From the IMG/VR virus record IMGVR_UViG_3300032038_000014, positions 1 to 64,000 of that record: a DNA stretch of 64,000 nt; one strand, written 5' to 3'. Made by a program: the position numbers and the translations under genes. The notes beneath the pieces were generated by a model that saw only the letters and a list, made by a program, of their open reading frames with translations, ran no database searches and was not told the origin of the DNA. This document shows positions 42,337 to 61,978 of this stretch, piece by piece. Numbering within the stretch: position 1 is the stretch's first letter; each line of letters begins with the position of its first letter. Source of the stretch: a virus. Lineage: Duplodnaviria; Heunggongvirae; Uroviricota; Caudoviricetes.

Positions 42337-42507
42337 ATGTTCAATTCAGATCCTCACTATTTCAAGGGAATTGATGGAAAATATTATGTTACAAAGATCA
42401 GTCTTTCTGGTCAATATGAAACATTTTTAATTACAGACAAGGCTCAACAAGAATTATTAAAAGATAGTGAAGAATTTAGAAAATTTTTTGAGGAATATAA
42501 ACAATGA
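42337..42507 (+). CDS. Hypothetical small protein (56 aa), not in the ORF track
   Basis: TAGGAG RBS, ATG at 42337; the stop overlaps the helicase ATG (ATGA). Confidence 0.4.
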   Translation: MFNSDPHYFKGIDGKYYVTKISLSGQYETFLITDKAQQELLKDSEEFRKFFEEYKQ

Positions 42508-43691
42508 CTTTAACTAAGAAACAGGAAGAGGGTTTAAACATAGCAATAGAACGACATAAACTTGGCGAGAAGTATACAGTCATTAGCGGCTATGCCGGTA
42601 CTGGTAAATCTACTCTCGTTAAGTTTATAATTGCGGCCTTGGATGTCCAACCGGACAGAGTGGCATATGCGAGCTTCACAGGCAAGGCCGCAGAAGTTCT
42701 TCGTAAAAAAGGCAATAAAAATTCGATGACAATGCATCGCCTTCTTTATGAGAGTATTCCAAAACCAGGAGGCGGGTTTTTTCATAAACCAAAACCTCAT
42801 CTTGATTATGATATTGTAGTAGTTGATGAGATTTCAATGGTGCCAAAAAAATTAGTTGACCAGTTATTCAAACATAAAATTTATGTTATTTGCCTTGGTG
42901 ACCCGTTCCAGCTTCCTCCAGTAGATAAAGATGAAGATAATCACCTTTTGGATAATCCTCACATTTTTCTTGATGAAATTGTGCGTCAAGAAGAAAATTC
43001 AGAGATTATTCAATTGACAATGAAAATTCGTGAACAGAAACCTCTTGAACTTTATAAAGGTAGTGAGGTACAAATTCTTCCTAAATCTAGTCTCAACACT
43101 GGAATGTTAATGTGGGGTGACCAGATTATTACTGCTACTAATTCCAAGCGTACTTCTATTAATAATCAAGTTCGTACATTACTTGGAAAGGGAACTCAAC
43201 CAGAAGATGGTGATAAGATTATTTGTTTGCGGAACTACTGGGAAAGCTTCAATGATGCAGGAGACCCATTGGTAAATGGAACAATAGGTATTTTAACCAA
43301 TAGTTATCCAGACGTTGTTAAAATCCCTCCTTTTGTTGCAAGAGATAGTAAAGTTAAACAGTTTGATGTTTTATATGGAGACTTTTGTGCAAATGATAGT
43401 GTCTATCCTATGATAGATATTGATCGTAATATGCTTCTTACGGGAGAGAAATGTTGTGATTGGAGGCTCTCTTATAAGCTGGGAAAATTAAGACCTCGAA
43501 TTGGCGACATCATACCTAAAGAATTTGCTTATGGATACGCGATTACCGCACATAAGAGTCAAGGTTCTGAATGGGATAAAGTCTTGGTAATTGAAGAAAA
43601 TTTCCCGTTCGTTCCTATTGAACATGCTCGATGGTTATATACAGCTGCAACTCGAGCAGTTAATAAATTAGTAATAATAAGGAATTATTAA
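42504..43691 (+). CDS. SF1 RecD/Dda-like DNA helicase
   Basis: Walker A SGYAGTGKST, Walker B VVVDEISM, motif V/VI AITAHKSQGSEWDKV. Confidence 0.75.
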   Translation: MTLTKKQEEGLNIAIERHKLGEKYTVISGYAGTGKSTLVKFIIAALDVQPDRVAYASFTGKAAEVLRKKGNKNSMTMHRLLYESIPKPGGGFFHKPKPHLDYDIVVVDEISMVPKKLVDQLFKHKIYVICLGDPFQLPPVDKDEDNHLLDNPHIFLDEIVRQEENSEIIQLTMKIREQKPLELYKGSEVQILPKSSLNTGMLMWGDQIITATNSKRTSINNQVRTLLGKGTQPEDGDKIICLRNYWESFNDAGDPLVNGTIGILTNSYPDVVKIPPFVARDSKVKQFDVLYGDFCANDSVYPMIDIDRNMLLTGEKCCDWRLSYKLGKLRPRIGDIIPKEFAYGYAITAHKSQGSEWDKVLVIEENFPFVPIEHARWLYTAATRAVNKLVIIRNY

Positions 43692-43692
43692 T

Positions 43693-44334
43693 ATGAATAA
43701 AGTAGTAACAATAGATTTTGATATTATAATGTCTCCTAGTATATTTTTATATAATGATTATGTGCCAAGAAGTACATGGGATTTTTTATTAAATAATCCT
43801 TATGACCCTAATATGCATTTATTGAGAATTAATGCAAATTATTATCAACGACTTTTTAATTTTGTAATGGAATGTACAAAAGTATTACCTGCTAATAAAA
43901 TTCATTTTTGTGAAGATCATGGGCAAACAGTAGATTTCATTACAGAAAAAAGTGATGTGGTTAATATTGATTTTCATCATGATTTAGGATATCCTAATGG
44001 CGGAGATCATATTAATATAGACGAATGTCCAACTTGTGCAAATTGGGTATATTACTTAAATGATAAAAATTTGCTTAATTCTTATGTTTGGATTCATGAT
44101 ATAGATAGATGGGATGATCCTTTAGAAGAAAATCAAATTGATTATTTAGACTATAATTTAGAAGAGTTTGATTTAGCTACTTTATTTCCAATAGATGAAT
44201 TAGTTATTGTATTATCAGAACCTTGGGTACCTCCATATATTCAACCTCTTTATTTTACACTAATGGATTATTGTCAAAGTTATTATTTTAAAAATTTTGA
44301 TTATATACAAGGCACTTATTTAGATACTCACTAA
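43693..44334 (+). CDS. Unknown-family protein, paralog A of 55180..55809 (D-x-D ... DFHHD motif protein)
   Basis: Shares IDFDIIM-P-I-LYND-V, NIDFHHDLGY, CxxW, and EPWVPPY motifs with the minus-strand paralog. Confidence 0.5.
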   Translation: MNKVVTIDFDIIMSPSIFLYNDYVPRSTWDFLLNNPYDPNMHLLRINANYYQRLFNFVMECTKVLPANKIHFCEDHGQTVDFITEKSDVVNIDFHHDLGYPNGGDHINIDECPTCANWVYYLNDKNLLNSYVWIHDIDRWDDPLEENQIDYLDYNLEEFDLATLFPIDELVIVLSEPWVPPYIQPLYFTLMDYCQSYYFKNFDYIQGTYLDTH

Positions 44335-44382: not shown

Positions 44383-47300
44383 ATGCAAAAATATTTTAAT
44401 TGCCATAATCATACTGAGTATTCAAACATTCGATTAATTGATTGTATTAATCGACCAAAAGATTTAATAAATAAAGCAATAGAATTAGGGCTTAGTGGCA
44501 TTGCGATAACAGACCATGAGGCCCTCTGTTCGCATGTAGAAGTAAATAAAATTGCGGCTAAATTAAGAGAAACGAATCCAGATTTTACAATTGCTCTTGG
44601 AAATGAAATTTATCTTACAGATACAAGAGAAAAGGGTCAAAGATATTGGCACTTCATTTTGATCGCTAAAGATGCAATTGGGCACAAGGCACTTCGTGAA
44701 CTTAGTTCAACTGCATGGTTTAATATGTATGCAGACAGAGGTCAGCAAAGAGTACCGACTCTTAAGTCTGAACTTGTAGAAATTGTAAACAAGTATCCTG
44801 GTCACTTAATAGCAACGAGCGCATGTATTGGTGGAGAATTATCTGCAAATGCATTTTTGAAATCACAAGCGCTTGAAGTTAATGATCAAGTAAATGCAAA
44901 TAGATTTGAACAGAATATTGATAACTTTATGAAATTCTGTACTGATTTATTTGGAGACGATTTTTATATTGAATGCGCGCCGTCGTCTAGTGACGACCAG
45001 GTGTCTGTAAATAAAGAATTATTAAAGATAGCGAAAAAGTGGAGCGTAAAGATGACAGTGGGCACAGACTCACATTATCTTACAGCTGCGGATCGTCCAG
45101 TTCATAAAGCGTATCTTAACTCTAAAGATGGAGAAAGAGAAGTTGATGCTTTCTACAGTTTTACTTACTTGATGGATAGTCAGGAGGTAGACAAACTATT
45201 ACGGTTTAGTTTTGACTTTGATACAATTAATTGGATCTTAGCTACGAGTTTAGAAATTCAGCAAAAGATAGAGTTTTATTCTTTATTCCATAAACAGGAT
45301 ATTCCTTATGTAGAAGTAAAAGATTATCCAAAGGGTGGAGGCTGGATGCTTGAACATCTTGATTCATATGAAGATAAATATGACCATCTTAAAAATATGT
45401 TAGTAGATGATGATGTTCAAAATAGATATTGGATAAATGAATGTCTTAATAAGTTAAACGATATTGACAAGTTTAATGAAGAATATCTTAATGAACTTGA
45501 AGAAGAAGCTAGGGTCAAGAGCGTAATTAGTGAAAAGCTTGAAACTAATATGTTCCGTTATCCTAACACTCTTCAGCATTATATTGATTTGATTTGGGAT
45601 TGTGGTTCAATGGTAGGAGCTGGACGTGGTTCAAGCTGTGCCGCACTTAACCATTATCTTATGGGTATTACGCAGCTCGATCCGATTGAATGGAATCTTC
45701 CATTCTTCCGTTATCTTAATGATGAGCGTGTAGAACTTGGTGATATTGATATCGACATATGTCCATCAAAGAGACCAATGATTCTTCAGAAGATTAGAGA
45801 AGAGCGTGCTCTAATGTTTAAGGAAGAGATTGCGGGCTGGGCTAAAGAGCATTTAGGCTGCACCCTTATCTCTACATTTGGAACAGAAGGTACAAAATCT
45901 GCTGTCTTAACTGCATGCCGTGGTTATAGAAGTGAAGACTATCCCGATGGAATTGAAATTGATGAAGCGCAATTTATGTCTTCATTGATTCCTCAAGAGC
46001 GTGGTTTTTTATGGTCTATTAAAGATGTAGTATATGGTGATAAAGATAAAGGTCGCCGTCCAGTTCAAGCGTTTATTAGAGAAGTAGAAAAATATCCAGG
46101 TCTTCTTGATATTATAGTTGCAATTGAAGGTCTAGTTAATAAAAGAAGTTCTCATGCTTCTGGAGTTATTTTATTTGATGGAGATCCATTTGAACATAGT
46201 GCGTTTATGAAAACTCCTCATGGAGAAATTATTACACAGTTCAATCTGCATGATGCAGAGTTTATGGGATTAACAAAGTATGACTTCCTGGTAACAGAAG
46301 TTCAAGACAAATTAGTTCAAGCAATTAAATTAATGCAAGCTGATAATGTTTTGGAACCAAATTTATCATTAAGAGCAATTTATGATAAGTACTTCCATCC
46401 AAATGTAATTCCTTTAGAAGATCCAAAGATTTGGGAGGCTCTTGGAAATGTATCTGTTTTAAACACATTCCAGTTTGATTCTCAGGTTGGAGCACAAGCT
46501 GCAAAAAAGATTCGTCCACATAATGTATTAGAAATGGCCGATGCAAATGGTTTGATGCGTCTAATGGGAGAAGAAGGACAAGAGCGTCCACTAGATAAAT
46601 ATGTAAGGTTTAAAAGAAATATTGGTCTTTGGTATAAAGAAATGACCAACTTTGGTTTGACAAAAGAAGAACAAAAATATCTTGAACCTTACTTTAAAAG
46701 CTCATATGGAGTTCCACCAAGTCAGGAGCAGCTTATGAGAATGTTGATGGATGAACATATTTGTAACTTCTCATTGGGTGAAGCAAATGCGGCTCGTAAA
46801 ATAGTTGGTAAGAAACAGATGTCAAAGATTCCAGAATTGAAAAAACAAGTTCTGGAAAGGGCGTCAAGTGCAAAATTAGGCGAGTATGTGTGGCGTTTTG
46901 GAGCAGGCCCGCAGATGGGTTATTCGTTCTCTGTAATTCATGCGTTAGCATATAGTTTCATTGGAGTGCAAACTTTATACATCGCAACAAATTGGAATCC
47001 AATTTATTGGAATACAGCTTGTTTGATTGTTAACTCTGGTGCAACTGATCCAGAGAACGGAGGAGCAACTGATTATTCCAAAATTGCAAAAGCGATGGGA
47101 GATATTATTGGTGCAGGAATTAAAATTAGTCTGGTAGATATTAATAAGTCTGGATATGGTTTTGAACCAGATGCAGAAAATAATCAGATTCTGTATGGAA
47201 TGAAAGCGATGTTAAATGTTGGTGATGATATTATTGATTCAACAATTAACAATCGTCCATATGTATCTCCAAAAGACTTTTTAAATAAAGTAAAGCCAAA

Positions 47301-48303
47301 CAAACAAGCGATGATATCTCTTATTAAAGGCGGAGCTTTTGATAATATGATGGATCGAAAAGAATGTATGGCTTGGTATATCTGGGAAACTTGTGATAAA
47401 AAGAAAAGATTGACTTTGCAGAATATGCCAGGATTAATGCGGCATGAACTTCTTCCAGAAGAAACAGAAGAACAAATAACTGCGAGAAGAATTTATGAAT
47501 TTAATCGTTATCTAAAAGCGTGTTGTAAAAGCACTATTGATAAAGATAATTATTATCTTGATGATAGAGCAGTAGCATTCATGGATGAAATGGATTATTT
47601 AGGTATGTTAATTGTTATGGGAACTAATTACATCTTAAATGTCAAAGAGTGGGATAAACAAATTTATCAGCCATGGATGGATGTATTTAGAAATTGGATT
47701 GCAGAGAATAAAGAACAGATTCTTGATGAATTAAATTATCGAATTTTTAAAGATGATTGGGATAAATATGCTCAAGGAAGTTTATCTGCATGGGAAATGG
47801 AATCATTGTGTTTCTATTATCATGAACATGAATTAGCAGGTATAAATAATGGAATTTATGGATTTAAGAATTTCTTTGATCTACCAGAGATTCCAGTAGT
47901 AGAAAAGTCATTCCCGCGTGGTGGAGTAATGATAAACATGTTCAAATTATCAAAGATATGCGGAACATGTATCGCAAAGAATAAAATAAAAAGTACTGTT
48001 AGTTTATTAACAACCAATGGAGTTGTTGAAGTAAAGTTCCGTAAAGAGTACTTCTCCTTGTTTGATAAACAAATATCTGAAAGACAAGCAGATGGAACAA
48101 AGAAGATTAAAGAGAAATCTTGGTTTAATCGAGGAAGTATGATTATTGTTACAGGAATGCGTTCAGGAGATGAATTCATCTCAAAGAAATATGCATCTAC
48201 TGGCGGACATCAATTGTATAAGATTGATGGAATTAATGATGATGGAACTTTAGTAATTAGAAGCGAAAGATATAAAGGCATAGCCGAGGACGAATATGTA
48301 TAA
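44383..48303 (+). CDS. dnaE: DNA polymerase III alpha-type replicative polymerase (DnaE/PolC family, N-terminal PHP domain)
   Basis: PHP motif CHNHTEYSNIRLIDCI...ITDHEA, 1306 aa, central palm/fingers; C-terminal OB-like region. Confidence 0.85.
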   Translation: MQKYFNCHNHTEYSNIRLIDCINRPKDLINKAIELGLSGIAITDHEALCSHVEVNKIAAKLRETNPDFTIALGNEIYLTDTREKGQRYWHFILIAKDAIGHKALRELSSTAWFNMYADRGQQRVPTLKSELVEIVNKYPGHLIATSACIGGELSANAFLKSQALEVNDQVNANRFEQNIDNFMKFCTDLFGDDFYIECAPSSSDDQVSVNKELLKIAKKWSVKMTVGTDSHYLTAADRPVHKAYLNSKDGEREVDAFYSFTYLMDSQEVDKLLRFSFDFDTINWILATSLEIQQKIEFYSLFHKQDIPYVEVKDYPKGGGWMLEHLDSYEDKYDHLKNMLVDDDVQNRYWINECLNKLNDIDKFNEEYLNELEEEARVKSVISEKLETNMFRYPNTLQHYIDLIWDCGSMVGAGRGSSCAALNHYLMGITQLDPIEWNLPFFRYLNDERVELGDIDIDICPSKRPMILQKIREERALMFKEEIAGWAKEHLGCTLISTFGTEGTKSAVLTACRGYRSEDYPDGIEIDEAQFMSSLIPQERGFLWSIKDVVYGDKDKGRRPVQAFIREVEKYPGLLDIIVAIEGLVNKRSSHASGVILFDGDPFEHSAFMKTPHGEIITQFNLHDAEFMGLTKYDFLVTEVQDKLVQAIKLMQADNVLEPNLSLRAIYDKYFHPNVIPLEDPKIWEALGNVSVLNTFQFDSQVGAQAAKKIRPHNVLEMADANGLMRLMGEEGQERPLDKYVRFKRNIGLWYKEMTNFGLTKEEQKYLEPYFKSSYGVPPSQEQLMRMLMDEHICNFSLGEANAARKIVGKKQMSKIPELKKQVLERASSAKLGEYVWRFGAGPQMGYSFSVIHALAYSFIGVQTLYIATNWNPIYWNTACLIVNSGATDPENGGATDYSKIAKAMGDIIGAGIKISLVDINKSGYGFEPDAENNQILYGMKAMLNVGDDIIDSTINNRPYVSPKDFLNKVKPNKQAMISLIKGGAFDNMMDRKECMAWYIWETCDKKKRLTLQNMPGLMRHELLPEETEEQITARRIYEFNRYLKACCKSTIDKDNYYLDDRAVAFMDEMDYLGMLIVMGTNYILNVKEWDKQIYQPWMDVFRNWIAENKEQILDELNYRIFKDDWDKYAQGSLSAWEMESLCFYYHEHELAGINNGIYGFKNFFDLPEIPVVEKSFPRGGVMINMFKLSKICGTCIAKNKIKSTVSLLTTNGVVEVKFRKEYFSLFDKQISERQADGTKKIKEKSWFNRGSMIIVTGMRSGDEFISKKYASTGGHQLYKIDGINDDGTLVIRSERYKGIAEDEYV

Positions 48304-48844: not shown

Positions 48845-48931
48845 GGGCAAAAAAGGACAAAAAATTAGAAATAAAATCCATATATAGTGATAGGCAGTTT
48901 CTGCCTTACTACATTTAGATGGAGGATTTAT

Positions 48932-51208
48932 ATGTTAATAGAAAAAAGAGATTGTCAATTCGTAGAATTTGATAAAAATAAAATAGAAAATGCTATTAAT
49001 AATGCATTTCTTGAAGTAGATAATATACTGTATGAAACAGATACAGCACATGATATTGCAGAAGAAATTGAAAAGATTGCTGCAACAAATGAAGAGTATA
49101 AAGGACACCCTATTACAGTAGAGCAGGTTCAAGATTTAGTAGAAGATTATCTTATGCGTTCCGAGCGAAAGGATGTAGCACGTGCTTACATTCGTTATCG
49201 TTTTAAGAGAGAGGCAGCTCGTAATGCAAAGACAGTTTTCATAGATGCTATTGCAGAGAAACTTGAGGCTCGTAATGTTCAGAACCAAAATGCAAATATA
49301 GATGAGCGTTCATTTGGAGGAAGAATTGGTGAGGCTTCTGGAGTAATGACAAAGCAATATGCTTTGGATAATATTGTTTCTAGAATGTCTAGAGAGAACC
49401 ATTTGAATAATAGAATCTATATTCATGACCTTGATTCATATGCTGTAGGTATGCATAACTGTTTATCTATTCCATATGATGATTTACTCGCAAAGGGTTT
49501 TAATACACGTCAGACAGATGTGCGTCCTGCTAATTCTGTAAATACTGCTATGCAACTTGTTGCAGTTATTGCACAATTGCAATCACTTCAACAGTTTGGT
49601 GGAGTATCTGCAACTCATCTTGACTGGACTATGGTTCCATATGTTCGCAAATCCTTTAAGAAGCATTTAAAAGATGGTGCAACTTATATAGCTCGTCCAG
49701 ATGCAGCGCTTGAGAATCTTCTCAATTCAGAAGAAGAAATTGGATTTGATTATCCAGGTCTTAAAGATAATTATCCAAAGATTTATCAATATGCAATAGA
49801 TATGACAGAAAGAGAAATTCATCAAGGAGTAGAAGGATTGTATCATAATCTTAATACTCTTCAGAGCCGCTCTGGAAATCAGTTACCTTTTACTTCCATT
49901 AATTATGGAACTTGTACTCTTCCAGAGGGTAGAATGGTAACTAAAGCTCTTCTTGAAGTATCTATTGAAGGATTAGGCAAATTACATAAAACATCAATAT
50001 TCCCTTGTGGAATTTTCCAAATGATGAAAGGAGTTAATCGTGAGCCGGGTGATCCTAATTATGATTTGTATCGTTTGGCTCTGCAATCTACTGCTAAACG
50101 CTTATATCCTAATTATGCTAACGTCGATTGGTCCGGTAATGCGGGATATGATCGCGAAGATCCGAGAACATATTTCAGCACAATGGGATGCAGAACGACG
50201 AACGGATTAGATATTAATGCCGAGGAAGGTACAAATCCACAAATTAAAGACGGTCGTGGAAATATTTGTCCAGTAACAATTATTATGCCAACTCTTGCTA
50301 TGGAAGCAAAGAAGCTGGTTAAAGATGAATTGGCTGGTTCAATGGTTCCTCAAAGCATTGGTTGGAGACAAGACCAAGAAGTTAAGAAGTTTATGAATTT
50401 ACTTGATGATGCAATTCATGATGCTAAAGATATGCTGATTGAAAGGTTTGAGTATATTTGTTCACAAGATGCGGCCAGCGCTAAATTTATGTATGAAAAT
50501 GGCACTATGCTTGGCTATCATCCAGAGGAAGGTATTCGTTCTGCACTTAAGCATGGAACCATTGTAATTGGCCAACTGGGATTAGCTGAAACACTTCAAA
50601 TTTTATTACATACAGACCATACAACTGAAGAAGGTATGAAGTTAGCAAAAAGAATAGAGCAGTTATTTAAAGATAGATGCGCTGAATTCAAGCAAACTTA
50701 TAAATTAAACTTTGGTGTATATTATACTCCTGCAGAAAACCTTTGCTATACAGCAATGAAAAAGTTTAAAGAAAAATATGGAGAAATTCCTGAAGTAAGC
50801 GATCGTGAATACTTCACTAATTCAATCCATGTTCCAGTTTGGAAAGAGATTTCACCTTTCGATAAAATTGATATTGAGAGTCAATTAACTGGTTATTCCA
50901 ATGCGGGATGTATTACTTATGTTGAATTGGAAGGAGCAGTGTTAAAAAACCTCGATGCTTTGGAACAAATTGTAAATTATGCGATGGATAAAGATATTCC
51001 TTATTTTGCAATTAATGTCCCAAATGATACTTGTCTTGAATGTGGTTGGACTGGAGAAATAGAGAATGAATGTCCAGAATGTGGTTCAACTAATATTCAA
51101 AGATTAAGACGTGTAACAGGTTATCTTACTGGTGACTATAAAACAGCATTTAATAAAGGTAAGATTGCCGAAACCGAAGAGAGGTTTAAACATAGTAAAA
51201 AGTTATGA
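48932..51208 (+). CDS. nrdD: Anaerobic (class III) ribonucleoside-triphosphate reductase
   Basis: N-terminal ATP-cone-like region, C-terminal Zn ribbon (CLECG...CPECG) and glycyl-radical motif RVTGYLTG. ATG 48932 follows a GGAGG RBS. Confidence 0.9.
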   Translation: MLIEKRDCQFVEFDKNKIENAINNAFLEVDNILYETDTAHDIAEEIEKIAATNEEYKGHPITVEQVQDLVEDYLMRSERKDVARAYIRYRFKREAARNAKTVFIDAIAEKLEARNVQNQNANIDERSFGGRIGEASGVMTKQYALDNIVSRMSRENHLNNRIYIHDLDSYAVGMHNCLSIPYDDLLAKGFNTRQTDVRPANSVNTAMQLVAVIAQLQSLQQFGGVSATHLDWTMVPYVRKSFKKHLKDGATYIARPDAALENLLNSEEEIGFDYPGLKDNYPKIYQYAIDMTEREIHQGVEGLYHNLNTLQSRSGNQLPFTSINYGTCTLPEGRMVTKALLEVSIEGLGKLHKTSIFPCGIFQMMKGVNREPGDPNYDLYRLALQSTAKRLYPNYANVDWSGNAGYDREDPRTYFSTMGCRTTNGLDINAEEGTNPQIKDGRGNICPVTIIMPTLAMEAKKLVKDELAGSMVPQSIGWRQDQEVKKFMNLLDDAIHDAKDMLIERFEYICSQDAASAKFMYENGTMLGYHPEEGIRSALKHGTIVIGQLGLAETLQILLHTDHTTEEGMKLAKRIEQLFKDRCAEFKQTYKLNFGVYYTPAENLCYTAMKKFKEKYGEIPEVSDREYFTNSIHVPVWKEISPFDKIDIESQLTGYSNAGCITYVELEGAVLKNLDALEQIVNYAMDKDIPYFAINVPNDTCLECGWTGEIENECPECGSTNIQRLRRVTGYLTGDYKTAFNKGKIAETEERFKHSKKL

Positions 51209-51708
51209 GCAGATATAACACTATATTAACAAATGATGTAGTGAACGGAGAAGGAGTTTGTGTCTCCTTCTTCGTTCAAGGTTGTCCTCATCATTGTCCT
51301 GGATGTTTCAATGAGGAAACTTGGGATTTTAAAGGAGGTCAACCTTATACCGAACATACTAAATGGGAAATTATAGAAGCCATTGGAGCAAACGGTATAC
51401 AGAGAAATTTTTCAGTCTTGGGCGGAGAACCTCTTGATGAACATAATCTGAAAATGACAGAAGAAGTAATTAGTGCGGTTCGAGCAGCATATCCAAATAT
51501 AAAGATCTTTTTATGGACTGGATATACGATTGAAGAATTATCATCTTCATTTGATAATAAGTTAGGAAAAATTTTAAATACAGTAGATGTTCTTATTGAT
51601 GGACCTTTTATCGAAGAACAAAAAGACTTGTCCTTAAAGTTAAGGGGGAGCAAAAATCAACGAATCTTTAGAAGAGATAGTGGAAGATTAGAGGAATCAG
51701 AAGAATAA
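51205..51708 (+). CDS. nrdG: Class III RNR activating enzyme (radical SAM)
   Basis: CPHHCPGC cluster, GGEP motif; coupled to nrdD. Confidence 0.85.
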   Translation: MSRYNTILTNDVVNGEGVCVSFFVQGCPHHCPGCFNEETWDFKGGQPYTEHTKWEIIEAIGANGIQRNFSVLGGEPLDEHNLKMTEEVISAVRAAYPNIKIFLWTGYTIEELSSSFDNKLGKILNTVDVLIDGPFIEEQKDLSLKLRGSKNQRIFRRDSGRLEESEE

Positions 51709-54178: not shown

Positions 54179-54211
54179 CTTTATGGGAATTTGAAAAAGG
54201 AGGTAACTAAT

Positions 54212-54754
54212 ATGTGGGATTGGGTAATCACATATTGGGTACAGGTATTGTTCGGATTAATTGCAGCCGGTTTTGGTTGTTTAGCTAAAAAATTCTGGAC
54301 AATGTACCAAAATGAAAAAGTGCATGATGTTGAAGCTAATATGGCTGCATGTTATGAAAGAGTCAAAGGTGAAATTCAAGAAGTTGAAAGTATGGTTTTA
54401 AAACAAGAAGATTTATTTGAAAATAAAATTACTAAAGCATATAATAATGCTCGAGAACATGATAAAAATATTGAAGGTAATATTGATAGCATGTCTAAAT
54501 ATATCAATGTTTTAAAAGACGGAGTTCTTTCTATTCAAGGTGCTCACTTTAGACAACAATGTAAAGCTTTATTACAAGATGAAACTCGTTTTATTTCAAT
54601 TGATGAATTCGAACAATTAACTTTTGACCATAACATTTATAACCAATTAGGCGGAAACCACTTAGGAGATGCGCTCTTTGCTGCAGTAGAAGCCCGTTTT
54701 AAGGCTCAACAACTAAGTATGGGTGGTAAAGATAAAAAAGCTGGTGACTTATAA
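54212..54754 (+). CDS. Membrane protein (181 aa, one N-terminal TM helix)
   Basis: AAAAAGGAGG RBS; WDWVITYWVQVLFGLIAAGFGCLA helix. Confidence 0.45.
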   Translation: MWDWVITYWVQVLFGLIAAGFGCLAKKFWTMYQNEKVHDVEANMAACYERVKGEIQEVESMVLKQEDLFENKITKAYNNAREHDKNIEGNIDSMSKYINVLKDGVLSIQGAHFRQQCKALLQDETRFISIDEFEQLTFDHNIYNQLGGNHLGDALFAAVEARFKAQQLSMGGKDKKAGDL

Positions 54755-54775
54755 TAGTCACCAGCTTTTTTTTTG
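54738..54775. terminator. Bidirectional intrinsic terminator at the convergent junction
   Basis: AGCTGGTGACT tataat AGTCACCAGCT flanked by an A-run and a T-run. Confidence 0.65.
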
Positions 54776-55177
54776 TTATCCAAATAATTGTTGTTTATTG
54801 GCTTTTACTACAAATTCAATTTGTTGTTTAATATAAGCATCTAAATCTTCATAAACTAAAGATAAAATAGCTTGAGCTTCTTCTGTAAGAATTTCTTTAA
54901 TTGCGTTAAATGTCATTTCAAATGCTTTCTTTTGAGCTTCTTCAGTAAATGCATTTTGATCTTTAAGTGCATCTACATAAGTTTGATTAGTAGCCATGAC
55001 ACATGCTACAATCAAGTCATTAAGAATTGTTACATACTTTTGTACTAATTCATTATCAGTAGATTCTTTAATCTTTTCAGTTTGAGCATTTACTAACTTG
55101 ATAACATAAGTAGTTAAAATAGCAAGAAGTGGTACAAGCACTAAATTAAAAATTTGTTGTAATAATTCAATAGTCAT
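54776..55177 (-). CDS. Holin-like protein (phiLC3/LL-H holin family-like; N-terminal TM + coiled coil)
   Basis: N-terminal TM (LVLVPLLAILTTYVI) then ...NQTYVDALK...; architecture recalled as typical of the Lactococcus phiLC3 holin family. Confidence 0.45.
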   Translation of the reverse strand: MTIELLQQIFNLVLVPLLAILTTYVIKLVNAQTEKIKESTDNELVQKYVTILNDLIVACVMATNQTYVDALKDQNAFTEEAQKKAFEMTFNAIKEILTEEAQAILSLVYEDLDAYIKQQIEFVVKANKQQLFG

Positions 55178-55179
55178 AA

Positions 55180-55809
55180 TTATTTCCCCTCTATAATATT
55201 TTGAATTAATTCATAAAAAACTGCATATTTTCTTGGCACCCATTGTGGAGAAAGACAAAAATATATTTCATCAAATTCTATTTCATGTAATTGGTCAAAA
55301 TCTCTAATTTTTAAAAGGTTGAGTTTATAATCTCCACCATAAGTATCAAATTCTGGCATAGTTGAATTAGGTGCTTTAAGCCAAGTCATTGATGCAATTT
55401 TCTTTTTTAAATATAAATAACCTAACCAATCTGAACAATCATACTCATTATTATGAGTAATTTCTGTAAAATCAGTATCTCGATACCATAAATCATGGTG
55501 AAAATCTACATTATAAATATGATATTTACTTTGTTCATAATTAGATTGTTCTTTTAATATATCGACAATTTGCTCATGACTTTCTATAAAATAAATTGGT
55601 TTCTTTTTATTTGCTCCTATTAATCGTCCTATCTCTAATAATACTTTAGCATCATATGAAAGAATATTATAATTTTCTAATCCATATTCATCTTCTAATC
55701 TTTCCCAAATCTCAGCTGGATTATCATTACCTTCAACATCATCATTATATAAATTAATACAAGGATACATAATAATATCAAAATCTATACTTAAAATAGT
55801 CTTCTCCAT
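55180..55809 (-). CDS. Unknown-family protein, paralog B of 43693..44334
   Basis: SIDFDIIMYPCINLYNDDV, NVDFHHDLWY, CSDWLGYLY, SPQWVPRKY conserved with paralog A; 10 nt downstream of the rSAM gene. Confidence 0.5.
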   Translation of the reverse strand: MEKTILSIDFDIIMYPCINLYNDDVEGNDNPAEIWERLEDEYGLENYNILSYDAKVLLEIGRLIGANKKKPIYFIESHEQIVDILKEQSNYEQSKYHIYNVDFHHDLWYRDTDFTEITHNNEYDCSDWLGYLYLKKKIASMTWLKAPNSTMPEFDTYGGDYKLNLLKIRDFDQLHEIEFDEIYFCLSPQWVPRKYAVFYELIQNIIEGK

Positions 55810-55818
55810 TTTCCCTCC

Positions 55819-56727
55819 TTAAATATCTGCAAAATATAAACAACCACCTTGACATTGAAAAAAATCTCCTTGTTTACAAATAGTACATTTACCAGTATTG
55901 TTTGCAATAGTACGAGGATAAATTGATTTATATTGAAGATATCTTTCTACTTCTTCTATTCTATCAAATGATGATAAGTTAACCTGTTCTTTACAACCCC
56001 AACACATACGAGCATTCCAATCTGGATCAATAATAATATCTGGTTGACATATTTTAAGATCTTTTAATCCAGCCCCGCAAGCCTCATTTACAATTTCTCG
56101 TTCTTCTAAAGTAAAATAACAATAAGGAATATGATTACATACTAAATTAATTTTACATTTATTTTTGATAGAATCTTTACAAAATTGTAAAAAAATTGGT
56201 TTAATTTTAATATAATATTTTTCTTTATCAAATATATATTGATCTATCGGTAGCATAAGAGACAATTGTATTTCTTGAAGTCTATATTCTTTTACTATAT
56301 TCCAAAAAGAAGAATAGTCAGTAATATTATTTTGTAAATTGCATTTATAAGCTACTTTACGATTTACTCTTGGAAGTAAATCTAAAATTTCTTTTTGTTG
56401 TTGATTATCTACGCTACAATTAAGTACAATTAAATCATTATTAGAAATATAAGGAAGATATGGTTTTAAATTAATTCCATTAGTAAAAATAGTTGTATGT
56501 GTTCCAGTAGTATCATTATAATAATTGATTTGAGCTAAGAAATCTTCAAACTCTGGATGTTCAGTTGGCTCTCCTCCGGTAATACCTAAATTTACTTTAG
56601 AAGGAGATAAATATTCTAAAAGATTACAAAAATCTTCTAAATCCATATTCTGGTTTTTAGAAGTTTTTTGAGATATACAATAAGAACAATTAAGACTGCA
56701 TGAATCTGTAATTTGTATATTTACCAT
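55819..56727 (-). CDS. Radical SAM enzyme with C-terminal SPASM-like Cys-rich domain
   Basis: CxxxCxxC (CSLNCSYC), GGEP; the C-terminal half has 7+ Cys (CNHIPYC, CGAG...C, CWGC, CTIC...CQGGC). Confidence 0.7.
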   Translation of the reverse strand: MVNIQITDSCSLNCSYCISQKTSKNQNMDLEDFCNLLEYLSPSKVNLGITGGEPTEHPEFEDFLAQINYYNDTTGTHTTIFTNGINLKPYLPYISNNDLIVLNCSVDNQQQKEILDLLPRVNRKVAYKCNLQNNITDYSSFWNIVKEYRLQEIQLSLMLPIDQYIFDKEKYYIKIKPIFLQFCKDSIKNKCKINLVCNHIPYCYFTLEEREIVNEACGAGLKDLKICQPDIIIDPDWNARMCWGCKEQVNLSSFDRIEEVERYLQYKSIYPRTIANNTGKCTICKQGDFFQCQGGCLYFADI

Positions 56728-56814
56728 TTAATTTTAATCCTTTTTCTCCTTTTATTGTGAATATTATACCAAAAAAAATAAGGGAAGTCAAAATTATTGA
56801 CTTCCCTTAAAGTT

Positions 56815-57129
56815 TTATGAATTTGAAACAACATTTTTTAAAAATGTGATACTATATGCAGGTCTATCATAAGCATCTAAAATTACATTGAGTGAAGAAA
56901 ATTCATAATCAACTCCATTAAATATAGTATCGTTTCCATAAGTAATTTCAAAAGATCCACCAAAATCAGTTAACATAATATCTCCCATTTGATTTATATT
57001 AACTGCATTAGTAAATTCACAATCTATATTTTTTTGTAATTGTGAAGGATTTTCATCATCATGATCTACTCTGTAATTAAGCGTATTGATATCATATTCA
57101 TAAGTATCAAAAGTTAACTTCATAGACAT
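56815..57129 (-). CDS. Hypothetical protein (104 aa), possible rSAM substrate or fiber accessory protein
   Basis: ORF between the giant fiber and the rSAM genes. Confidence 0.4.
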   Translation of the reverse strand: MSMKLTFDTYEYDINTLNYRVDHDDENPSQLQKNIDCEFTNAVNINQMGDIMLTDFGGSFEITYGNDTIFNGVDYEFSSLNVILDAYDRPAYSITFLKNVVSNS

Positions 57130-57157: not shown

Positions 57158-60100
57158 TTATTTTATACGAATCCAAATTCGTCCATTAACATCCACATTA
57201 TTAGTACCCCAAGTTTCATAATCTGGAATTGCAGATATAGTACCAATAATACAATGTGGATATTCTCGAATTTCTTCTTTAGTCATTATAGAAACTGTTC
57301 CGTTTGGTCCGGAACAAACCGGTTCACCTATATGATTACGGAATTCTTCTCTATCTTCCAATGGATAAGCAAGAACTCGTCCTGAAGCTGCAATTGGAGT
57401 TTGTGCTTTTTTAGTTTCACCAATTGCGAAACCAAAAGTATCAGAAACTATTTCACAACCTGGCTGGAGTCGTTCAGTTGAAAGTACAAGAGTATCATCT
57501 CCAACTTCTTTAACACAACGACCTGGTTCTGTAACTGTAGATATACGATATTCTGCATAGTCATTCCAAGCTGCTCCAAATAATACAGATCCTTGAGTAT
57601 ATACTGAAGCATTATAAACAGTCGCATGATTTGCAGAAGAAGCAGTTGTAGTTCCTAATACATAAGCCTTTGTACTAGAAGCAGATGAATAGATATTCGT
57701 AGCATTATTAGCGGTTTGAACAATACCACCATCGGTAGCTACAGTACCAGTAATAGAAGCAACTACTTCTGTACTTGTTTTTTTATCAGATGTAGTAGTA
57801 TCATTTACTTCATTAGAATTAATTAATGACCATCCATTATTAGATCCTTCTAATATATAAGCATATCTTCTTGGATATGTTCCACATTTAATATAAGCAT
57901 TAAATCTTGTATCAGTTCCAGTTGTAGTTGTTCCAGTGGCAGGGGTAATAATAACATCTTCTGCCCCAAATCCATATCTAATTATCCATGTTGCACTACA
58001 ATTCATTGCTGCATTAGTAGCATTAGTACGAACACTTAATTTAATTATGCCATATGGACCTCCATTATATCTACTGCGAATTATTACAATTACATCTTTG
58101 TCTTGCCATTGTCCAGTTCCTGTTGTACAAGTAGCAAATCTATGCCAAGAATAATTAGCTGTATTTCCTCCATTTATAGTACAATAATTAGGGTACCAAG
58201 ATAAAGCTGTAAGAGTTCCAGCATTTAAATAAACTCCACAAGTTCCATTACCAACTGTACTTCCACTAGTACTTACTTTACCAGTATTACTTATTGTTAA
58301 TAAATTAGTACCATTGCCCATAGCAGTAGCTGCTGCAGTAGTAACCACTTCTCGCCATGCAGTACCATTACTTACTTGCGATCTAATTTGCATTCGTGAA
58401 TCACTAGTAGAAATAGCTAATTGAGAATCATAACCACCATTATTGTCCCAGTTCATTTGAAGTACATTGGCATCAAAACTACATTTTCCAGTAGTAGTAG
58501 AACTAGATGCTACTAAATGGAATAAAGCTCCAGCTGCAACATAATTTGCAGCTTTATTTAAATTAGTAGTAGTTCCTCGCGCTTCATATAAATTAAGATA
58601 ATTTGCTCTTGCTGCAGTTCCACTTAAGGTTCCATAAAATGTAACATTATTGTTGGTGTCTACAGTAAAAACAGAATGTGCTGTTCCAGAACCATGAGCA
58701 GGTAGCCAAATTCCACGAGCCCCATCTGTCGCCGCGGCAGCCCACATATGCATTTGTCCAGCTCCAGATTGTACACCAACTTGAGCTTCTCTTGCAGTAT
58801 TTCCATTAACACCTGCCCAAAATCTACTTGCGGTCATTGTTAATAAAGCAGAAGCATCATAACTATTTTGACCAGGTAAAAATTCAATTGTACCATCTGA
58901 TGCAACAACCATAACCTCTGCACCATTAGCACCATTATATTTATTAGCAACTATTGTATCAGCAGATTCTCCACCACCAATAATAGTAGTTCCTCCACCA
59001 CCAATAGCAATACCATTACCATATTCATCTGCAGTATTTTCTAAAAAGCGTATCATACGATTTGTTGATTTAGAACCTGTATAATAAATCCCAGTTCCAT
59101 TCGTACCTTTTATATGTAAATTACCATTTAAAGTAATTTTACCATTTGCAAAATTAGCTACTTGAGTTCCATTAGTTTGTCTAACAGCATCCCAAGCACC
59201 AGATAAAGCAGAAGTATAAACTTGAATATCTACTTGACTAGCTAATAAACGTATTCTATCTGGACCAGAGCTTGCATTAGGATCATTGCCTTTAAACAAT
59301 AACAATTCTGAAGTTTCATGAGTAGTTGTTTTATCGCCATAAATAGATTCACCTATATAAGTATGATTATAACTACCTGCACCATCTGCATTTAATCCAT
59401 AAAAAGCAATATAATTATTTGATCCAACATTATCAGTAGCATATCCAGTATTTGCAGCAGTATCAGCTTTTCCTACTCTAAGAGGTCCATATGCAGTAGT
59501 TAAGCCATTAATATAAGCTGTACCATTTACATACAACTTATAAGAAGTATTAGTACCACCAATACCTAATGTATTACTAAAATAACCATTACCAGAACTA
59601 TTAGCATAAAATTTTTCTCCACTGCTACCAACTTGTAATTGTTCATCGGTTCTAACAATGGAGCTACCAAAATAAACTCCAGAAGTAAAACCGCCTCCAT
59701 CATTAATTCTTAACCAAGTATCATTAATAGTAAAAGCTTTTTTACTATTTAAATAAATATAATAAGGTGAACAAATATTAATAACATCACCAGAATCATT
59801 GGCCTGAGAAATTCTTAGTTCAGTACCTCCAGCAACACCAGATTTAATTTGATAAATAGCAGATACATCAGAAGCATCAGTAGCACTTTCAACATAAGGA
59901 TTCCAATATACTCCTGGATTAGCAGTACTTGTAACAGCTCCTAAATAAAGTTTTCCTTCACCATTAATTGAAGCAACATTAGTACTACCTCTACGAAAAA
60001 TCCATCCTCGAGTAGTAGCATCATTCATAGTGAAATAAGTTGCCCAATCACTAGTAACTCCACCATGTGTACCAAATGTTGCAGTTCCTGCAAACATTAA

Positions 60101-61978
60101 ACCATAAGTAGGAGCTCCAGTAGTAGGACCTCCATAAAGAGAGATACCTATTCCTAAAGAAGCATTGGTATTAGCTAAACCAATACCTCCTTTAGTTGTA
60201 CCTACATTAAGACTGCCTCGAAGAGCTATATTTCCAGAATCATAATTAGCAGTTAATACATTATAATAAGCACCTTTTGCAGTAGTATAATCTGATTGAA
60301 GATAAAATGTTCCTTCAGAGTTTAAAAAACGCCAATTTGCATTTCCATTTCTATTAAACTCTAAATAAGCATCTCCACCATCTTTATTAATAATCTTTAA
60401 ATAACCATCTTGCCAATCACCATGTCCATCATAAATAGCAAAACCAGTAGCAGCTTGAACTTTTTTATTAAAATAAAATGCTATATTAGCACTATTTTCA
60501 AAATGGCACCAACCACTATTGTTAGAACCAATAGTAACAGTATTGCCATTATTTGTAATTTTTAAAAGACTTCCATTTATATGTAATTTAGAAGCTGGAC
60601 TAGAAGTACCTATACCAACATTAGCATTAAATACAGCCAATCCACCAACTGTAATTGTATTAAAATTAGCATGATTTGCAAAACTAGCTGCACCAGTAAC
60701 AACTAATTCTCTAATAGTAGCAGAATCAATATTTACTGTATTTCCAAAATTAACATGACCAGTTACATTACCACCAATTAAAGGTAACCAAGGTGAATTA
60801 ATTGTTTCAGTAGCTCCTGATCCTTTTTCAACAGTAATTACTGTATCAGTAGTTGACCATCCAGAAATATATTTATCTTTAATATTAGTAGTATCTTCAT
60901 AAATTTCTTCAGCATAAATAGCTGCCCATCTATTAGAACTAGTTCCTAAATAACCAGTTTTATTATTAATAGGATATATATATCTACTTTGAGAATTTAT
61001 AGCAAAAAAATCACCATTAGAAGAAGTTGTTCTAAAAATAACTTTTTCATTACTGTCATCTGTAGTTTGAATAATTAAATTACCTTCATCACTAGCATCA
61101 ATTCGATAAAAAATTCTAGCTCCATCTGAACTACCTGACCAATTAATACCTTTAGAACTAATAGGATATGTTTCTCCAGCTACTGTAGGCCAAGTTCCAA
61201 TAGAAGCAAAACTTAAATCACCTGTCATAATATCGCCAGACAATCTAACAAAATTTAATTGTTTATCAGTAGATCCACCATCGCCTTTATAAAAGGTTAA
61301 TTTATGATTAGCTGAATCAGTAGTAATATTGCTTATATAAGTAGTTTTAATACTAGTAGAATCCCCAGTTGCCTTAGTTGCGTATTCAGCAGTACCAGCA
61401 ACATTAGTAACTGTTAAAGTATTAGTTGAAGGATTATAAATAAAATCATTATCATAAACTGGTTTTCCTTTTGTAGTATTATCAGAAAACCATACTACAG
61501 TAGCAACATCATTACTTCTAGCTTCAAAACCAGAATAATTAAAACTGGCATTAGAAAAAGTAACTCCTCCAGAAGCAGTAAAAGCTCCCGTAAAAGTTTT
61601 CGCACCAGCTATTGTTTGCGCGCCAGCTGTTATGACACCTGCGGAACTGGCTCCAGCGTTCGGGAGGAGTACTGTTGTAGATGTATCACCGCTACCTCTT
61701 TCCAAAATGGCAGTAACCTTAGCTGTATCTGTCGTACCATCAAATTCAATTCCTTTGATATAAGTATTTACGATAGATTGTGTTCCTGTGGAATCATAAG
61801 TCGCTTTTCCAGCTTCTGCCGCATAGTGTTCACTCATTAAAATACGATGAGTAGCATCAAAGTCTAAATAAAGCGATCCTTTATCGCCGTCTATAGCAAA
61901 ATAGACAGTACCAGGTACAATTTGACTAGGTATATTATTTTTATTACCTGACTTAAATTGTACGATATCGTAAGCCAT
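57158..61978 (-). CDS. Giant tail fiber / receptor-binding protein (1606 aa)
   Basis: Extremely Gly/Thr/Asn/Ser/Ala-rich repetitive beta-structure; own RBS (GGAAAGGGAGGT); preceded by a minus-strand terminator. Confidence 0.6.
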   Translation of the reverse strand: MAYDIVQFKSGNKNNIPSQIVPGTVYFAIDGDKGSLYLDFDATHRILMSEHYAAEAGKATYDSTGTQSIVNTYIKGIEFDGTTDTAKVTAILERGSGDTSTTVLLPNAGASSAGVITAGAQTIAGAKTFTGAFTASGGVTFSNASFNYSGFEARSNDVATVVWFSDNTTKGKPVYDNDFIYNPSTNTLTVTNVAGTAEYATKATGDSTSIKTTYISNITTDSANHKLTFYKGDGGSTDKQLNFVRLSGDIMTGDLSFASIGTWPTVAGETYPISSKGINWSGSSDGARIFYRIDASDEGNLIIQTTDDSNEKVIFRTTSSNGDFFAINSQSRYIYPINNKTGYLGTSSNRWAAIYAEEIYEDTTNIKDKYISGWSTTDTVITVEKGSGATETINSPWLPLIGGNVTGHVNFGNTVNIDSATIRELVVTGAASFANHANFNTITVGGLAVFNANVGIGTSSPASKLHINGSLLKITNNGNTVTIGSNNSGWCHFENSANIAFYFNKKVQAATGFAIYDGHGDWQDGYLKIINKDGGDAYLEFNRNGNANWRFLNSEGTFYLQSDYTTAKGAYYNVLTANYDSGNIALRGSLNVGTTKGGIGLANTNASLGIGISLYGGPTTGAPTYGLMFAGTATFGTHGGVTSDWATYFTMNDATTRGWIFRRGSTNVASINGEGKLYLGAVTSTANPGVYWNPYVESATDASDVSAIYQIKSGVAGGTELRISQANDSGDVINICSPYYIYLNSKKAFTINDTWLRINDGGGFTSGVYFGSSIVRTDEQLQVGSSGEKFYANSSGNGYFSNTLGIGGTNTSYKLYVNGTAYINGLTTAYGPLRVGKADTAANTGYATDNVGSNNYIAFYGLNADGAGSYNHTYIGESIYGDKTTTHETSELLLFKGNDPNASSGPDRIRLLASQVDIQVYTSALSGAWDAVRQTNGTQVANFANGKITLNGNLHIKGTNGTGIYYTGSKSTNRMIRFLENTADEYGNGIAIGGGGTTIIGGGESADTIVANKYNGANGAEVMVVASDGTIEFLPGQNSYDASALLTMTASRFWAGVNGNTAREAQVGVQSGAGQMHMWAAAATDGARGIWLPAHGSGTAHSVFTVDTNNNVTFYGTLSGTAARANYLNLYEARGTTTNLNKAANYVAAGALFHLVASSSTTTGKCSFDANVLQMNWDNNGGYDSQLAISTSDSRMQIRSQVSNGTAWREVVTTAAATAMGNGTNLLTISNTGKVSTSGSTVGNGTCGVYLNAGTLTALSWYPNYCTINGGNTANYSWHRFATCTTGTGQWQDKDVIVIIRSRYNGGPYGIIKLSVRTNATNAAMNCSATWIIRYGFGAEDVIITPATGTTTTGTDTRFNAYIKCGTYPRRYAYILEGSNNGWSLINSNEVNDTTTSDKKTSTEVVASITGTVATDGGIVQTANNATNIYSSASSTKAYVLGTTTASSANHATVYNASVYTQGSVLFGAAWNDYAEYRISTVTEPGRCVKEVGDDTLVLSTERLQPGCEIVSDTFGFAIGETKKAQTPIAASGRVLAYPLEDREEFRNHIGEPVCSGPNGTVSIMTKEEIREYPHCIIGTISAIPDYETWGTNNVDVNGRIWIRIK

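Follow-up and report, generated by a model that had tools for sequence, protein, structure and literature searches.

We analysed two related genes of a tailed phage (Caudoviricetes) in positions 1 to 64,000 of the IMG/VR record IMGVR_UViG_3300032038_000014, a stretch referred to below as the window. Copy A is an open reading frame (ORF) of 213 amino acids (aa) on the plus strand (43693..44334) and copy B an ORF of 209 aa on the minus strand (55180..55809), exactly at the coordinates and on the strands reported in a preliminary description of this DNA. Both belong to one family of mini-arginase-like proteins, in which copy A represents the A-type and copy B the B-type members, the latter coupled to radical S-adenosylmethionine (SAM) genes. 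With somewhat less than even confidence, we read the two products as guanidino-group hydrolases, minimal and probably permuted relatives of the peptide arginases of family PF12640 (UPF0489).

A BLASTP alignment of the two proteins comprises 60/197 identities (30%) and 48% positives at E=3e-19. This value holds under composition-based statistics, so the similarity noticed earlier is not compositional. The window is AT-rich (33% GC) and low-complexity similarity is frequent in such genomes, which would favour a chance resemblance, or one of the ORFs not being a gene. Yet, apart from the alignment itself, each ORF has dozens of full-length homologs, down to ~30% identity and with invariant motif columns, and both copies are preceded by a Shine-Dalgarno sequence, a strong one in the case of copy B. 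We consider chance or compositional similarity refuted, the probability left to it being negligible.

Copy A carries the motifs IDFDIIM (aa 7-13), EDH (74-76) and DFHHD (93-97), and copy B IDFDIIM (aa 8-14), ESH (76-78) and DFHHD (102-106). All three motifs listed in the preliminary description are thus found in both copies, but of E-x-H the family keeps only the His and not the Glu. The putative metal ligands are D8, D10, H76, D93, H95 and D97 in copy A and D9, D11, H78, D102, H104 and D106 in copy B; only these two proteins of the window match the family profile. In a neighbour-joining tree they fall into separate clades, old and sister to each other, and each clade is tied to a conserved genomic context of its own. 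The duplication proposed earlier therefore stands in so far as the copies are true and ancient paralogs, but they are not a recent duplicate reused twice. The paralogy, the size of the family, its invariant residues and its conserved contexts are direct observations.

The family is large, mostly phage-borne and almost unannotated. In a collection of 5.8 billion proteins, we found 75 homologs of copy B and 35 of copy A, all unnamed or labelled 'hypothetical'. A profile search of 1.84 billion representatives of 50%-identity clusters returned 1,617 clusters (E<=1e-3), almost all of them metagenomic, or 872 with the stricter threshold of E<=1e-10, and the clustered members are nearly all single-domain proteins of 180-280 aa. 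Relatives are present in 201 viral contigs of IMG/VR, mostly from phages of 100-200 kb, and at 14 loci among 185,579 species genomes, mostly on phage-like contigs of metagenome-assembled genomes of Clostridia or Lachnospiraceae. Among 50,697 GenBank phage records, members were detected in three Synechococcus phages only, and the S-SCSM1 gene SSCSM1_162, labelled 'arginase-like amidino hydrolase', is the sole named homolog; the S-SCSM1 paper itself mentions neither arginase nor amidino hydrolase. In line with the earlier view of an unknown family, neither PHROGs, NCBIfam nor PADLOC holds a model matching A or B, and Pfam gives only a sub-threshold PF12640 match for copy B. Literature searches on UPF0489, C5orf22, CXXX-repeat and S-SCSM1 retrieved no functional study of the family, and a megablast of a 15.5-kb region of the window against GenBank phages gave no match.

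Copy A lies, as previously described, between a Dda-like helicase and DnaE. The stop codon of the SF1 (RecD/Dda-like) helicase gene (42504..43691, +; Pfam AAA_30 1.2e-23, UvrD_C_2 2.9e-15) is located 1 nt ahead of its ATG, and the gene encoding a DnaE-type DNA polymerase III alpha (44383..48303, +; PDB 2hpi Pol III alpha, E=1.2e-61) is directly downstream, followed by genes for guanylate kinase (Gmk), NrdD (48887..51208, +; Pfam NRDD 1.5e-148) and NrdG, the radical SAM activase of NrdD (51205..51708, +; Pfam Fer4_12 2.3e-44; NCBIfam NrdG 1.1e-47).

Copy B, in turn, is the middle gene of a predicted radical SAM - B - holin operon. A gene encoding a 302-aa, SPASM-like radical SAM enzyme of the 'c14' family (55819..56727, -; Pfam PF04055, E=2e-12) ends 9 nt before it, as was largely anticipated, while the reported position next to the tail fiber holds in a loose sense only: on the same strand, a fibre-like ORF of 1606 aa (57158..61978) is found at some distance upstream. 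The holin gene (54776..55177, -; phrog_13712, E=1.1e-31), the last of the operon, has its own Shine-Dalgarno sequence and starts 2 nt past the stop codon of copy B; a holin ortholog also follows the B ortholog in two related loci, L001 and L089 (L numbers denote the fetched loci). A perfect 13-bp palindromic terminator-like hairpin with T-runs (56809..56779, -) separates a 104-aa ORF (56815..57129) from the radical SAM gene and is overlapped by a promoter-like site with 11/12 matches and an extended -10 TG (56791..56763, -). A second hairpin, of 16 bp and with T-runs on both sides (54734..54771), is found between the convergent holin and 54191..54754(+) genes and probably represents, as judged from its sequence, a bidirectional terminator closing the operon. 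All these elements come from consensus scans only, and promoter-like sites were not enriched over shuffled sequence; the flanking hairpins and the promoter-like site are suggestive, and only that, of a radical SAM - B - holin unit apart from the fibre and 104-aa genes.

We also considered that copy B, directly before a holin gene, might be an endolysin. This was ruled out by two canonical endolysin-like ORFs of 893 aa (3906..6590, -) and 545 aa (6659..8299, -), situated ~47 kb from the holin gene and matching endolysin/amidase PHROGs (some of them in several repeated stretches), and by the fact that B-type genes elsewhere precede GT8 glycosyltransferase genes, not holin genes. As a separate observation, a gene for a Thg1-like tRNA-His guanylyltransferase (8718..9590; phrog_4717, E=1e-86) and one for an RNA ligase (12303..13742; phrog_968, E=1e-63) suggest a tRNA-repair module in this phage.

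Invariant residues and probable relation to arginases

In an 84-sequence alignment (A1), the residues D9, D11, H78, N100, D102, H104, H105, D106, Y109 and W128 are invariant (numbering of copy B here and below). When all 132 unique full-length members from 183 loci were compared, a set that takes in marine and bacterial members at ~25% identity, D9, D11, H78, N100, D102, H104, H105, D106, W128, W143 and S187 were kept in 132/132. In arginases, the binuclear Mn centre is bound by one His, a DxHxD and a DxD motif. All six ligands of this type (H78, D102-x-H104-x-D106 and D9-x-D11) are invariant in the family and would converge on one putative site. Of the earlier proposal of a metal-dependent hydrolase or deacetylase-like site, the first part is thus sharpened to a putative arginase-type binuclear site, whereas a deacetylase site becomes less likely because all six arginase ligands are invariant. 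We consider kinship with arginases in fold and site probable.

The only Pfam family matched by members of the A/B family is PF12640. It matches at E<0.01 in 21/84 members, the best being P0030 (6.9e-6) with 27.0 bits, equal to the gathering cutoff, and the match spans the His...DxHxD half only (model positions 1-113 of 167). Circularly permuted sequences gave the same partial match, and the Pfam model may end before the DxD motif. OspR and other verified peptide arginases, as well as human C5orf22, belong to PF12640 and share the motifs EEH(N/H)EAF, DXHXD and LDIDLDYFSC, with H12, D39, H41, D43, D165 and D167 as ligands (PMC10028609); BipC of the biphenomycin pathway is a UPF0489 arginase with the same motif set (PMC12707348). 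The family-wide counterparts of these motifs are xESHEQIV, DFHHD and LSIDFD[IY]IMxPC. Copy B has IESHEQIV, DFHHD and LSIDFDIIMYPC, and relatives have LSVDFDYIMYPC, but in a permuted order.

The likeness to peptide arginases such as OspR of landornamide and BipC thus extends to all three metal motifs (ExH, DxHxD, and L-x-I-D-x-D followed by hydrophobics and Cys) and to the spacing from His to DxHxD (24 aa in the A/B family, 27 in OspR), and peptide arginases are found together with radical SAM maturases, a feature of copy B as well. Yet, the DxD strand is N-terminal in the A/B family and C-terminal in OspR. As this strand comes first in the chain and not last, we infer a circular permutation of a minimal peptide-arginase core, with which the length of ~200 aa (305 aa in OspR) and the half-only Pfam match are consistent. 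A protein of this size probably has no room for the OspR dimerisation domain (residues 170-234). Further differences are Pfam scores at or below the cutoff, the invariant residues N100, H105, Y109, W128, W143 and S187, which have no described counterpart in peptide arginases, and the distribution, the A/B family being mostly phage-encoded with one clade in replication modules. In the window, no precursor peptide was identified.

With ureohydrolases of PF00491 (arginase, agmatinase SpeB, formiminoglutamase, guanidine hydrolase), the A/B family shares the H/DxHxD/DxD set of six ligands. There is, however, no sequence-level match to them, other sequences take the place of the GGDHS and SxDxDxxDP motifs, the chain is ~100 aa shorter and the order of motifs differs. 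The AlphaFold2 (AF2) model of copy B (predicted local distance difference test score 94.7) displays the three-layer alpha/beta/alpha arrangement with a parallel sheet that characterizes the arginase superfamily, but not its chain order His...DxHxD...DxD, since the DxD strand is N-terminal. A Foldseek search of the model against PDB gave nothing significant and single-sequence searches of PDB sequences only chance matches, hence the relationship to known families is a distant one. We place the A/B family in the arginase superfamily by fold and ligands only; by score threshold and motif order it falls outside PF12640.

Two other readings of the N-terminal DxD strand were rejected. A haloacid dehalogenase (HAD) phosphatase would call for an invariant Lys and a motif-II Ser/Thr, in place of which three invariant His are found, and HAD-like structures rank below arginases in the structure comparison; a nucleoside hydrolase would call for motifs that are missing.

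Genomic context of the family

ORFs were called in the 183 fetched loci, their neighbours were labelled by profiles seeded from Pfam-verified genes, and the context was compared with the neighbour-joining tree. We found that context tracks clade across the family. In the A-type clade the order is helicase - X - DnaE - Gmk - NrdD - NrdG, where X stands for the family member. The helicase-X-DnaE synteny is conserved in >50 loci; helicase genes are adjacent to 58 unique family proteins, and DnaE is the +1 neighbour for 52. In variants of this module a DUF5131 or a 3-deoxy-D-arabino-heptulosonate 7-phosphate (DAHP)-synthase-like gene is directly upstream of X, and at L056 the gene at -1 encodes what we take, from sequence, to be a Dam-like methyltransferase. 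A 237-kb phage contig shows the order NrdG - X - MetK.

Several A-type loci display peculiarities of their own. In L016, L024, L035, L083, L094 and L098, in-frame TAG codons interrupt the A-type gene (about 7995..8650), and the neighbouring helicase, DnaE and NrdD genes are split as well; the alignment runs on across the TAG codons, which points to phages reading TAG as a sense codon. The 770-aa helicase upstream of the A-type gene in L056 (4928..7237) has an apparent intein inserted in its P-loop, and in L007 (1621..5427) NrdD is in pieces around a GIY-YIG homing endonuclease.

The marine T4-like clade is located directly upstream of a family-B (gp43-like) polymerase gene in five loci (L084, 8004..11256; L085; L086; L123; L127), with a 2-oxoglutarate-Fe(II) oxygenase gene after it and, beyond, genes which we presume by eye to be UvsX-like and gp41-like. 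Adjacency to a polymerase thus recurs with two unrelated replicative polymerase families, DnaE and family B. Members of the marine clade are carried by the Synechococcus phages S-SCSM1, SynMITS9220M01 and S-RSM4. In contrast, the S-SCSM1 protein SSCSM1_162, which is 26% identical to copy B and 35% to the marine clade, is encoded in an island of auxiliary metabolic genes of this cyanophage (zwf, gnd, petE, psbA) and adjoins neither a polymerase nor a radical SAM gene.

Bacterial members form clades with contexts of their own. Distant members in low-GC marine and Myxococcota contigs lie inside operons encoding S-adenosylmethionine decarboxylase (AdoMetDC) and spermidine synthase (Pfam 1.4e-20 and 7.9e-35), in five loci with four gene orders (L102, 7819..9708; L147, 4900..6773; L171; L142; L121). 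These operons are tight, with overlapping genes, and at least L147 seems to be bacterial, as it has nearby genes that by eye are SpoVR/PrkA-like. An AdoMetDC/spermidine-synthase operon is the expected place for an agmatinase or aminopropylagmatine ureohydrolase. The bacterial clade thus holds the agmatinase position of speD/speE operons, and its member may be a non-canonical agmatinase. Another clade directly follows the gene of an AviRa-type 23S rRNA methyltransferase (Pfam 4e-83) in high-GC (0.57-0.59) bacterial contigs (L139, 7035..8468; L148; L155; L156; L168), and one more is found near DUF1848-UvrD proteins.

Radical SAM partners of B-type genes

The radical-SAM-linked members form one clade, sister to the A-type, so the pairing seen for copy B is conserved in its relatives. 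In the window, L001/L002/L089, L003-5, L009-10, L090-92, L095 and L115, a radical SAM gene either adjoins the family member or stands one small ORF away from it, and the radical SAM gene directly preceding a B-type gene can be of several kinds. The window enzyme has the CX3CX2C motif (C10-x3-C14-x2-C17) and eight invariant C-terminal Cys, including CX2CX7CX3C. Its PF04055 match, Cys-rich C-terminus and SuiB-like fold agree with the radical SAM/SPASM assignment of the preliminary description, but the enzyme is SPASM-like rather than canonical and the Pfam SPASM model did not match it. In a Foldseek search of its AF2 model against PDB, the best match was SuiB (E=4.7e-8, TM-score 0.66), then viperin, with anSME fourth; the N-terminal substrate-recognition domain of SuiB, a Lys-Trp cross-linking maturase, is absent. 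More than 260 homologs of the c14 type were found.

Two types of candidate substrates stand out near B-type genes of other phages. L001 and L089 come from close relatives of the window phage, with NrdG, dUTPase, RuvC, holin and B 55-80% identical. Their radical SAM enzyme is a TIGR04115 CXXX-repeat maturase (NCBIfam 432 bits, cutoff 350), encoded two small ORFs past a 650-aa CXXX protein of the tail-fibre module (L001, 1581..3533; L089, 3581..5533; also in L002). This protein has ~22% Cys and 25% Gly and carries >100 consecutive CXXX repeats after an N-terminal region of ~100 aa; it is the probable target of the enzyme. In L003-5, L009-10, L090-91, L183, L185 and L186, a Tyr-rich protein of 300-490 aa is encoded near the c14 gene, directly upstream of it except in L185 (three genes downstream). 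The Tyr-rich proteins (L003, 3552..5018; L009, 5690..7000; L090/L091; L183, 3608..4789 and 4789..5958; L185, 8407..9675; L186, 5078..5986) share a conserved N-domain of ~190 aa, and their C-terminal half is 20-25% tyrosine with many Y-R-Y or Y-K-Y motifs. These modules usually end with a GT8 glycosyltransferase gene, and the c14/Tyr-rich/GT8 arrangement looks like a system maturing repeat proteins. In the window, a search for a Tyr-rich, Cys-rich or aromatic-Arg-aromatic-enriched substrate brought out no candidate.

Other arrangements were also encountered. In a bacterial isolate contig (L095, 7986..13358), the gene of the family member is followed, in this order, by those of a radical SAM/SPASM enzyme of 550 aa (anSME/DynA-like), a c14 enzyme and a 668-aa SecA-like ATPase, and the arrangement looks like a maturation-and-export cluster. 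One subclade is located among pairs of radical-SAM-like proteins of ~470-480 aa (L034/L097, 2982..9438; L057; L061; L065; L106), which were matched by no NCBIfam model. L034/L097 also contain two paralogs of ~290 aa and a DAHP-synthase-family gene; the relative of these paralogs in L057 has a faint peptidase-U32 match only.

The pairing of copy B resembles that of pathways for peptides that are made by ribosomes and modified after translation (RiPPs), where the gene of a radical SAM enzyme neighbours that of an arginase-fold enzyme (BipD/BipC, PbsB/PbsE, OspD/OspR). In biphenomycin, the UPF0489 arginase turns the Arg of F-R-F into Orn and the radical SAM enzyme cross-links the flanking aromatics (PMC12707348). 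The Y-R-Y motifs in the proteins encoded upstream in relatives of B are aromatic-Arg-aromatic motifs parallel to this F-R-F site, and SuiB as the best match of the c14 enzyme fits the same picture. There are also differences: the candidate substrates are repeat proteins of 300-650 aa in a phage fibre module and not short leader-core peptides, the radical SAM enzyme of B is a short SuiB/anSME-like protein rather than a B12-dependent enzyme or epimerase, and neither a protease nor an exporter is present, the window operon ending with a holin gene.

Candidate chemistry and rival explanations

The fold kinship, metal site, chemistry and substrates of the A/B family are inferred from the above. In the proposed mechanism, the six invariant residues would bind a binuclear Mn2+ (or similar) centre, and a metal-bridging hydroxide would attack the guanidino carbon, so that urea is released and a primary amine remains; the family would have split into context-specific clades. 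Copy B, presumably co-transcribed with the radical SAM gene, would most likely share with the radical SAM enzyme a protein or peptide substrate produced late in infection, in which it would convert Arg to Orn, by analogy with BipC and OspR beside the radical SAM enzymes of RiPP pathways; in relatives, Tyr/Arg-rich or CXXX-repeat proteins of the fibre module are its candidate substrates. Copy A probably uses this chemistry as well, but with another guanidino substrate: a small molecule such as agmatine or arginine, which would contribute to polyamine supply during DNA synthesis, or else a protein. Modification of nucleic acids by copy A, as suggested earlier, gained no support. We favour guanidino hydrolysis because no other chemistry is on record for the closest relatives that have been characterised, and it accounts for the polyamine-operon clade, for the MetK neighbour, since putrescine and SAM feed spermidine synthesis, and, through the RiPP precedent, for the radical SAM pairing. 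The specific substrates of A and B are much less certain than the kinship of fold and site.

A number of observations weigh against guanidino hydrolysis or against the substrates proposed for it. Copy B scores 20.1 bits (E 9e-4) with PF12640, the cutoff being 27, and copy A matches no Pfam family; profile searches of PDB sequences found nothing, whether with native profiles or with the permuted one (A3). The order of motifs is unlike that of every characterised arginase, and the putative permutation that would explain it is deduced from this order. At position 125, A and B have Cys and the polyamine-operon clade Glu, so copy A may not share an agmatine-like substrate; the shared Cys points, weakly, to a substrate of A that resembles that of B more than that of the putative agmatinases. 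The polymerase adjacency of the A-type and marine clades is explained by no hypothesis. In L001/L089, the B ortholog (57% identical to B, catalytic residues intact) stands beside a different radical SAM type and the CXXX repeats of the 650-aa target contain almost no Arg, which argues against a substrate-specific Arg-to-Orn role. The window contains neither a Tyr-rich protein nor a GT8 gene. Moreover, the family members beside c14 in L183 (7012..7695) and L185 (6963..7553; IDFSY for IDFDI and IDYFDD for IDFHHD) are degenerate and have lost the metal ligands, while L186 lacks the family member altogether, its radical SAM gene lying directly against GT8. Yet, Arg-containing Tyr repeats persist in L183 with its dead enzyme and in L186 with none.

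The degenerate members of L183 and L185 are probably pseudoenzymes retained in the module, and the keeping of dead copies beside c14 enzymes suggests an extra binding or scaffolding role with the radical SAM enzyme. We also asked if Y-R-Y content is linked to an active enzyme. The dead, Y-K-Y-rich L185 would fit such a link, but L183 and L186, which keep Y-R-Y, do not, and the idea was rejected.

Another explanation is that the family provides a generic helper of SAM-using enzymes, whose metal-hydroxide centre would destroy an inhibitory adenosyl by-product (5'-deoxyadenosine, methylthioadenosine or S-adenosylhomocysteine) by deamination or cleavage, copy B serving the adjacent radical SAM enzyme and copy A NrdG and other SAM enzymes of the phage. 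The neighbours indeed include at least five radical SAM families (c14, CXXX maturase, 550-aa SPASM, L097a/b pairs and NrdG), the SAM synthetase MetK, the methylthioadenosine-producing AdoMetDC and spermidine synthase, and the AviRa-type rRNA methyltransferase, directly adjacent to three unique family proteins, a pairing which none of the other explanations accounts for, and the presumed Dam-like methyltransferase at -1 in L056 would be one more SAM user; the retention of the B ortholog despite the swap of radical SAM type in L001/L089 also suits a substrate-independent role. We know, however, of no arginase-fold enzyme that acts on adenosyl compounds, and guanidino groups are what every characterised relative (OspR, BipC, agmatinases) hydrolyses, a precedent which explains the polyamine, MetK and radical SAM contexts equally well. 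SAM enzymes are common in phage genomes and the neighbour tally is a raw count, degenerate copies beside active radical SAM enzymes fit a helper no better, and the polymerase adjacency is likewise left unexplained. We regard such a helper as the main rival reading, but as unlikely. 

Distinctly less probable is a metal-dependent amide hydrolase or deacetylase of the histone deacetylase (HDAC)/acetylpolyamine-amidohydrolase (APAH) branch, which would free acetylated polyamines or deacetylate a sugar or a protein. Arginase and deacetylase families share a fold, and UPF0489 is grouped with both in Pfam. The invariant His-His pair and Tyr109 recall the His-His dyad and catalytic Tyr of HDACs, and GT8 glycosyltransferase genes lie downstream of many B-type genes. 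APAH is moreover known to be encoded by viruses (PMC9992855). HDAC6 and APAH do appear among the Foldseek matches of copy B, but these are weak (E 0.6-1, probability <=0.07) and not significant; the motifs match peptide arginases, and six binuclear ligands are invariant, in contrast to the single Zn and D/H/D triad of deacetylases. Neither the single Zn site nor the significant fold similarity expected of an HDAC/APAH member was thus found. A role of copy A as a replisome accessory, be it a two-metal nuclease/phosphoesterase or a non-enzymatic partner of the polymerase or helicase, is lower still in our estimate. It would draw on the position of A-type genes between helicase and DnaE for >50 unique proteins, on the start of copy A 1 nt past the helicase stop codon, and on the five marine loci with a polymerase unrelated to DnaE. 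Yet, the active-site residues are identical to those of the polyamine-operon and radical SAM clades, pointing to one shared chemistry, there is no similarity to nuclease or phosphatase families (HAD-like motifs are incomplete, as neither a Lys nor a Thr is conserved), and phage replication modules often hold auxiliary metabolic genes, here Gmk, NrdDG and dUTPase.

Within guanidino hydrolysis, the most far-reaching proposal is that a widespread family of circularly permuted phage mini-arginases edits Arg to Orn in proteins. Large virion or fibre proteins, rich in Tyr/Arg or with Cys repeats, would be matured by B-type members and short radical SAM/SPASM enzymes, often joined by GT8, and A-type members would perform the same edit or supply polyamines within the replication module. 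We offer this as a speculation with rather low odds. If true, it would mean RiPP-style chemistry on whole phage structural proteins.

Because one GenBank record is already labelled so, the arginase-like fold assignment is not wholly new. What appears to be new, within the literature searched, is the size of the family, its dominance in phages, the apparent permutation and the clade-specific contexts, among which we count the replication module, the radical SAM/repeat-protein/GT8 modules and the bacterial spermidine operons, together with what all this implies for the lack of arginase and agmatinase homologs reported for phages. This large family, with at least 1,600 clusters and 201 IMG/VR contigs, is hardly represented among cultured phages. 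Modules of the B-type (repeat protein - radical SAM - mini-arginase - GT8), of which we found no description in the literature searched, point to RiPP-like maturation of large phage proteins, and the placement beside two unrelated replicative polymerases is recurrent and testable.

The perfectly conserved arginase-type site in a smaller, apparently re-wired fold offers itself as a minimal scaffold on which to study the chemistry and evolution of ureohydrolases. In a published survey, phages yielded no arginase homolog and only one agmatinase homolog, and phage arginine decarboxylases were assumed to rely on the host agmatinase (PMC9992855). The A/B family, present in bacterial speD/speE operons as well as in metabolic and replication modules of phages, could change this picture: if its members edit Arg or supply polyamines, they would be the 'missing' phage arginase/agmatinase that was not found by a BLAST survey of the virosphere.

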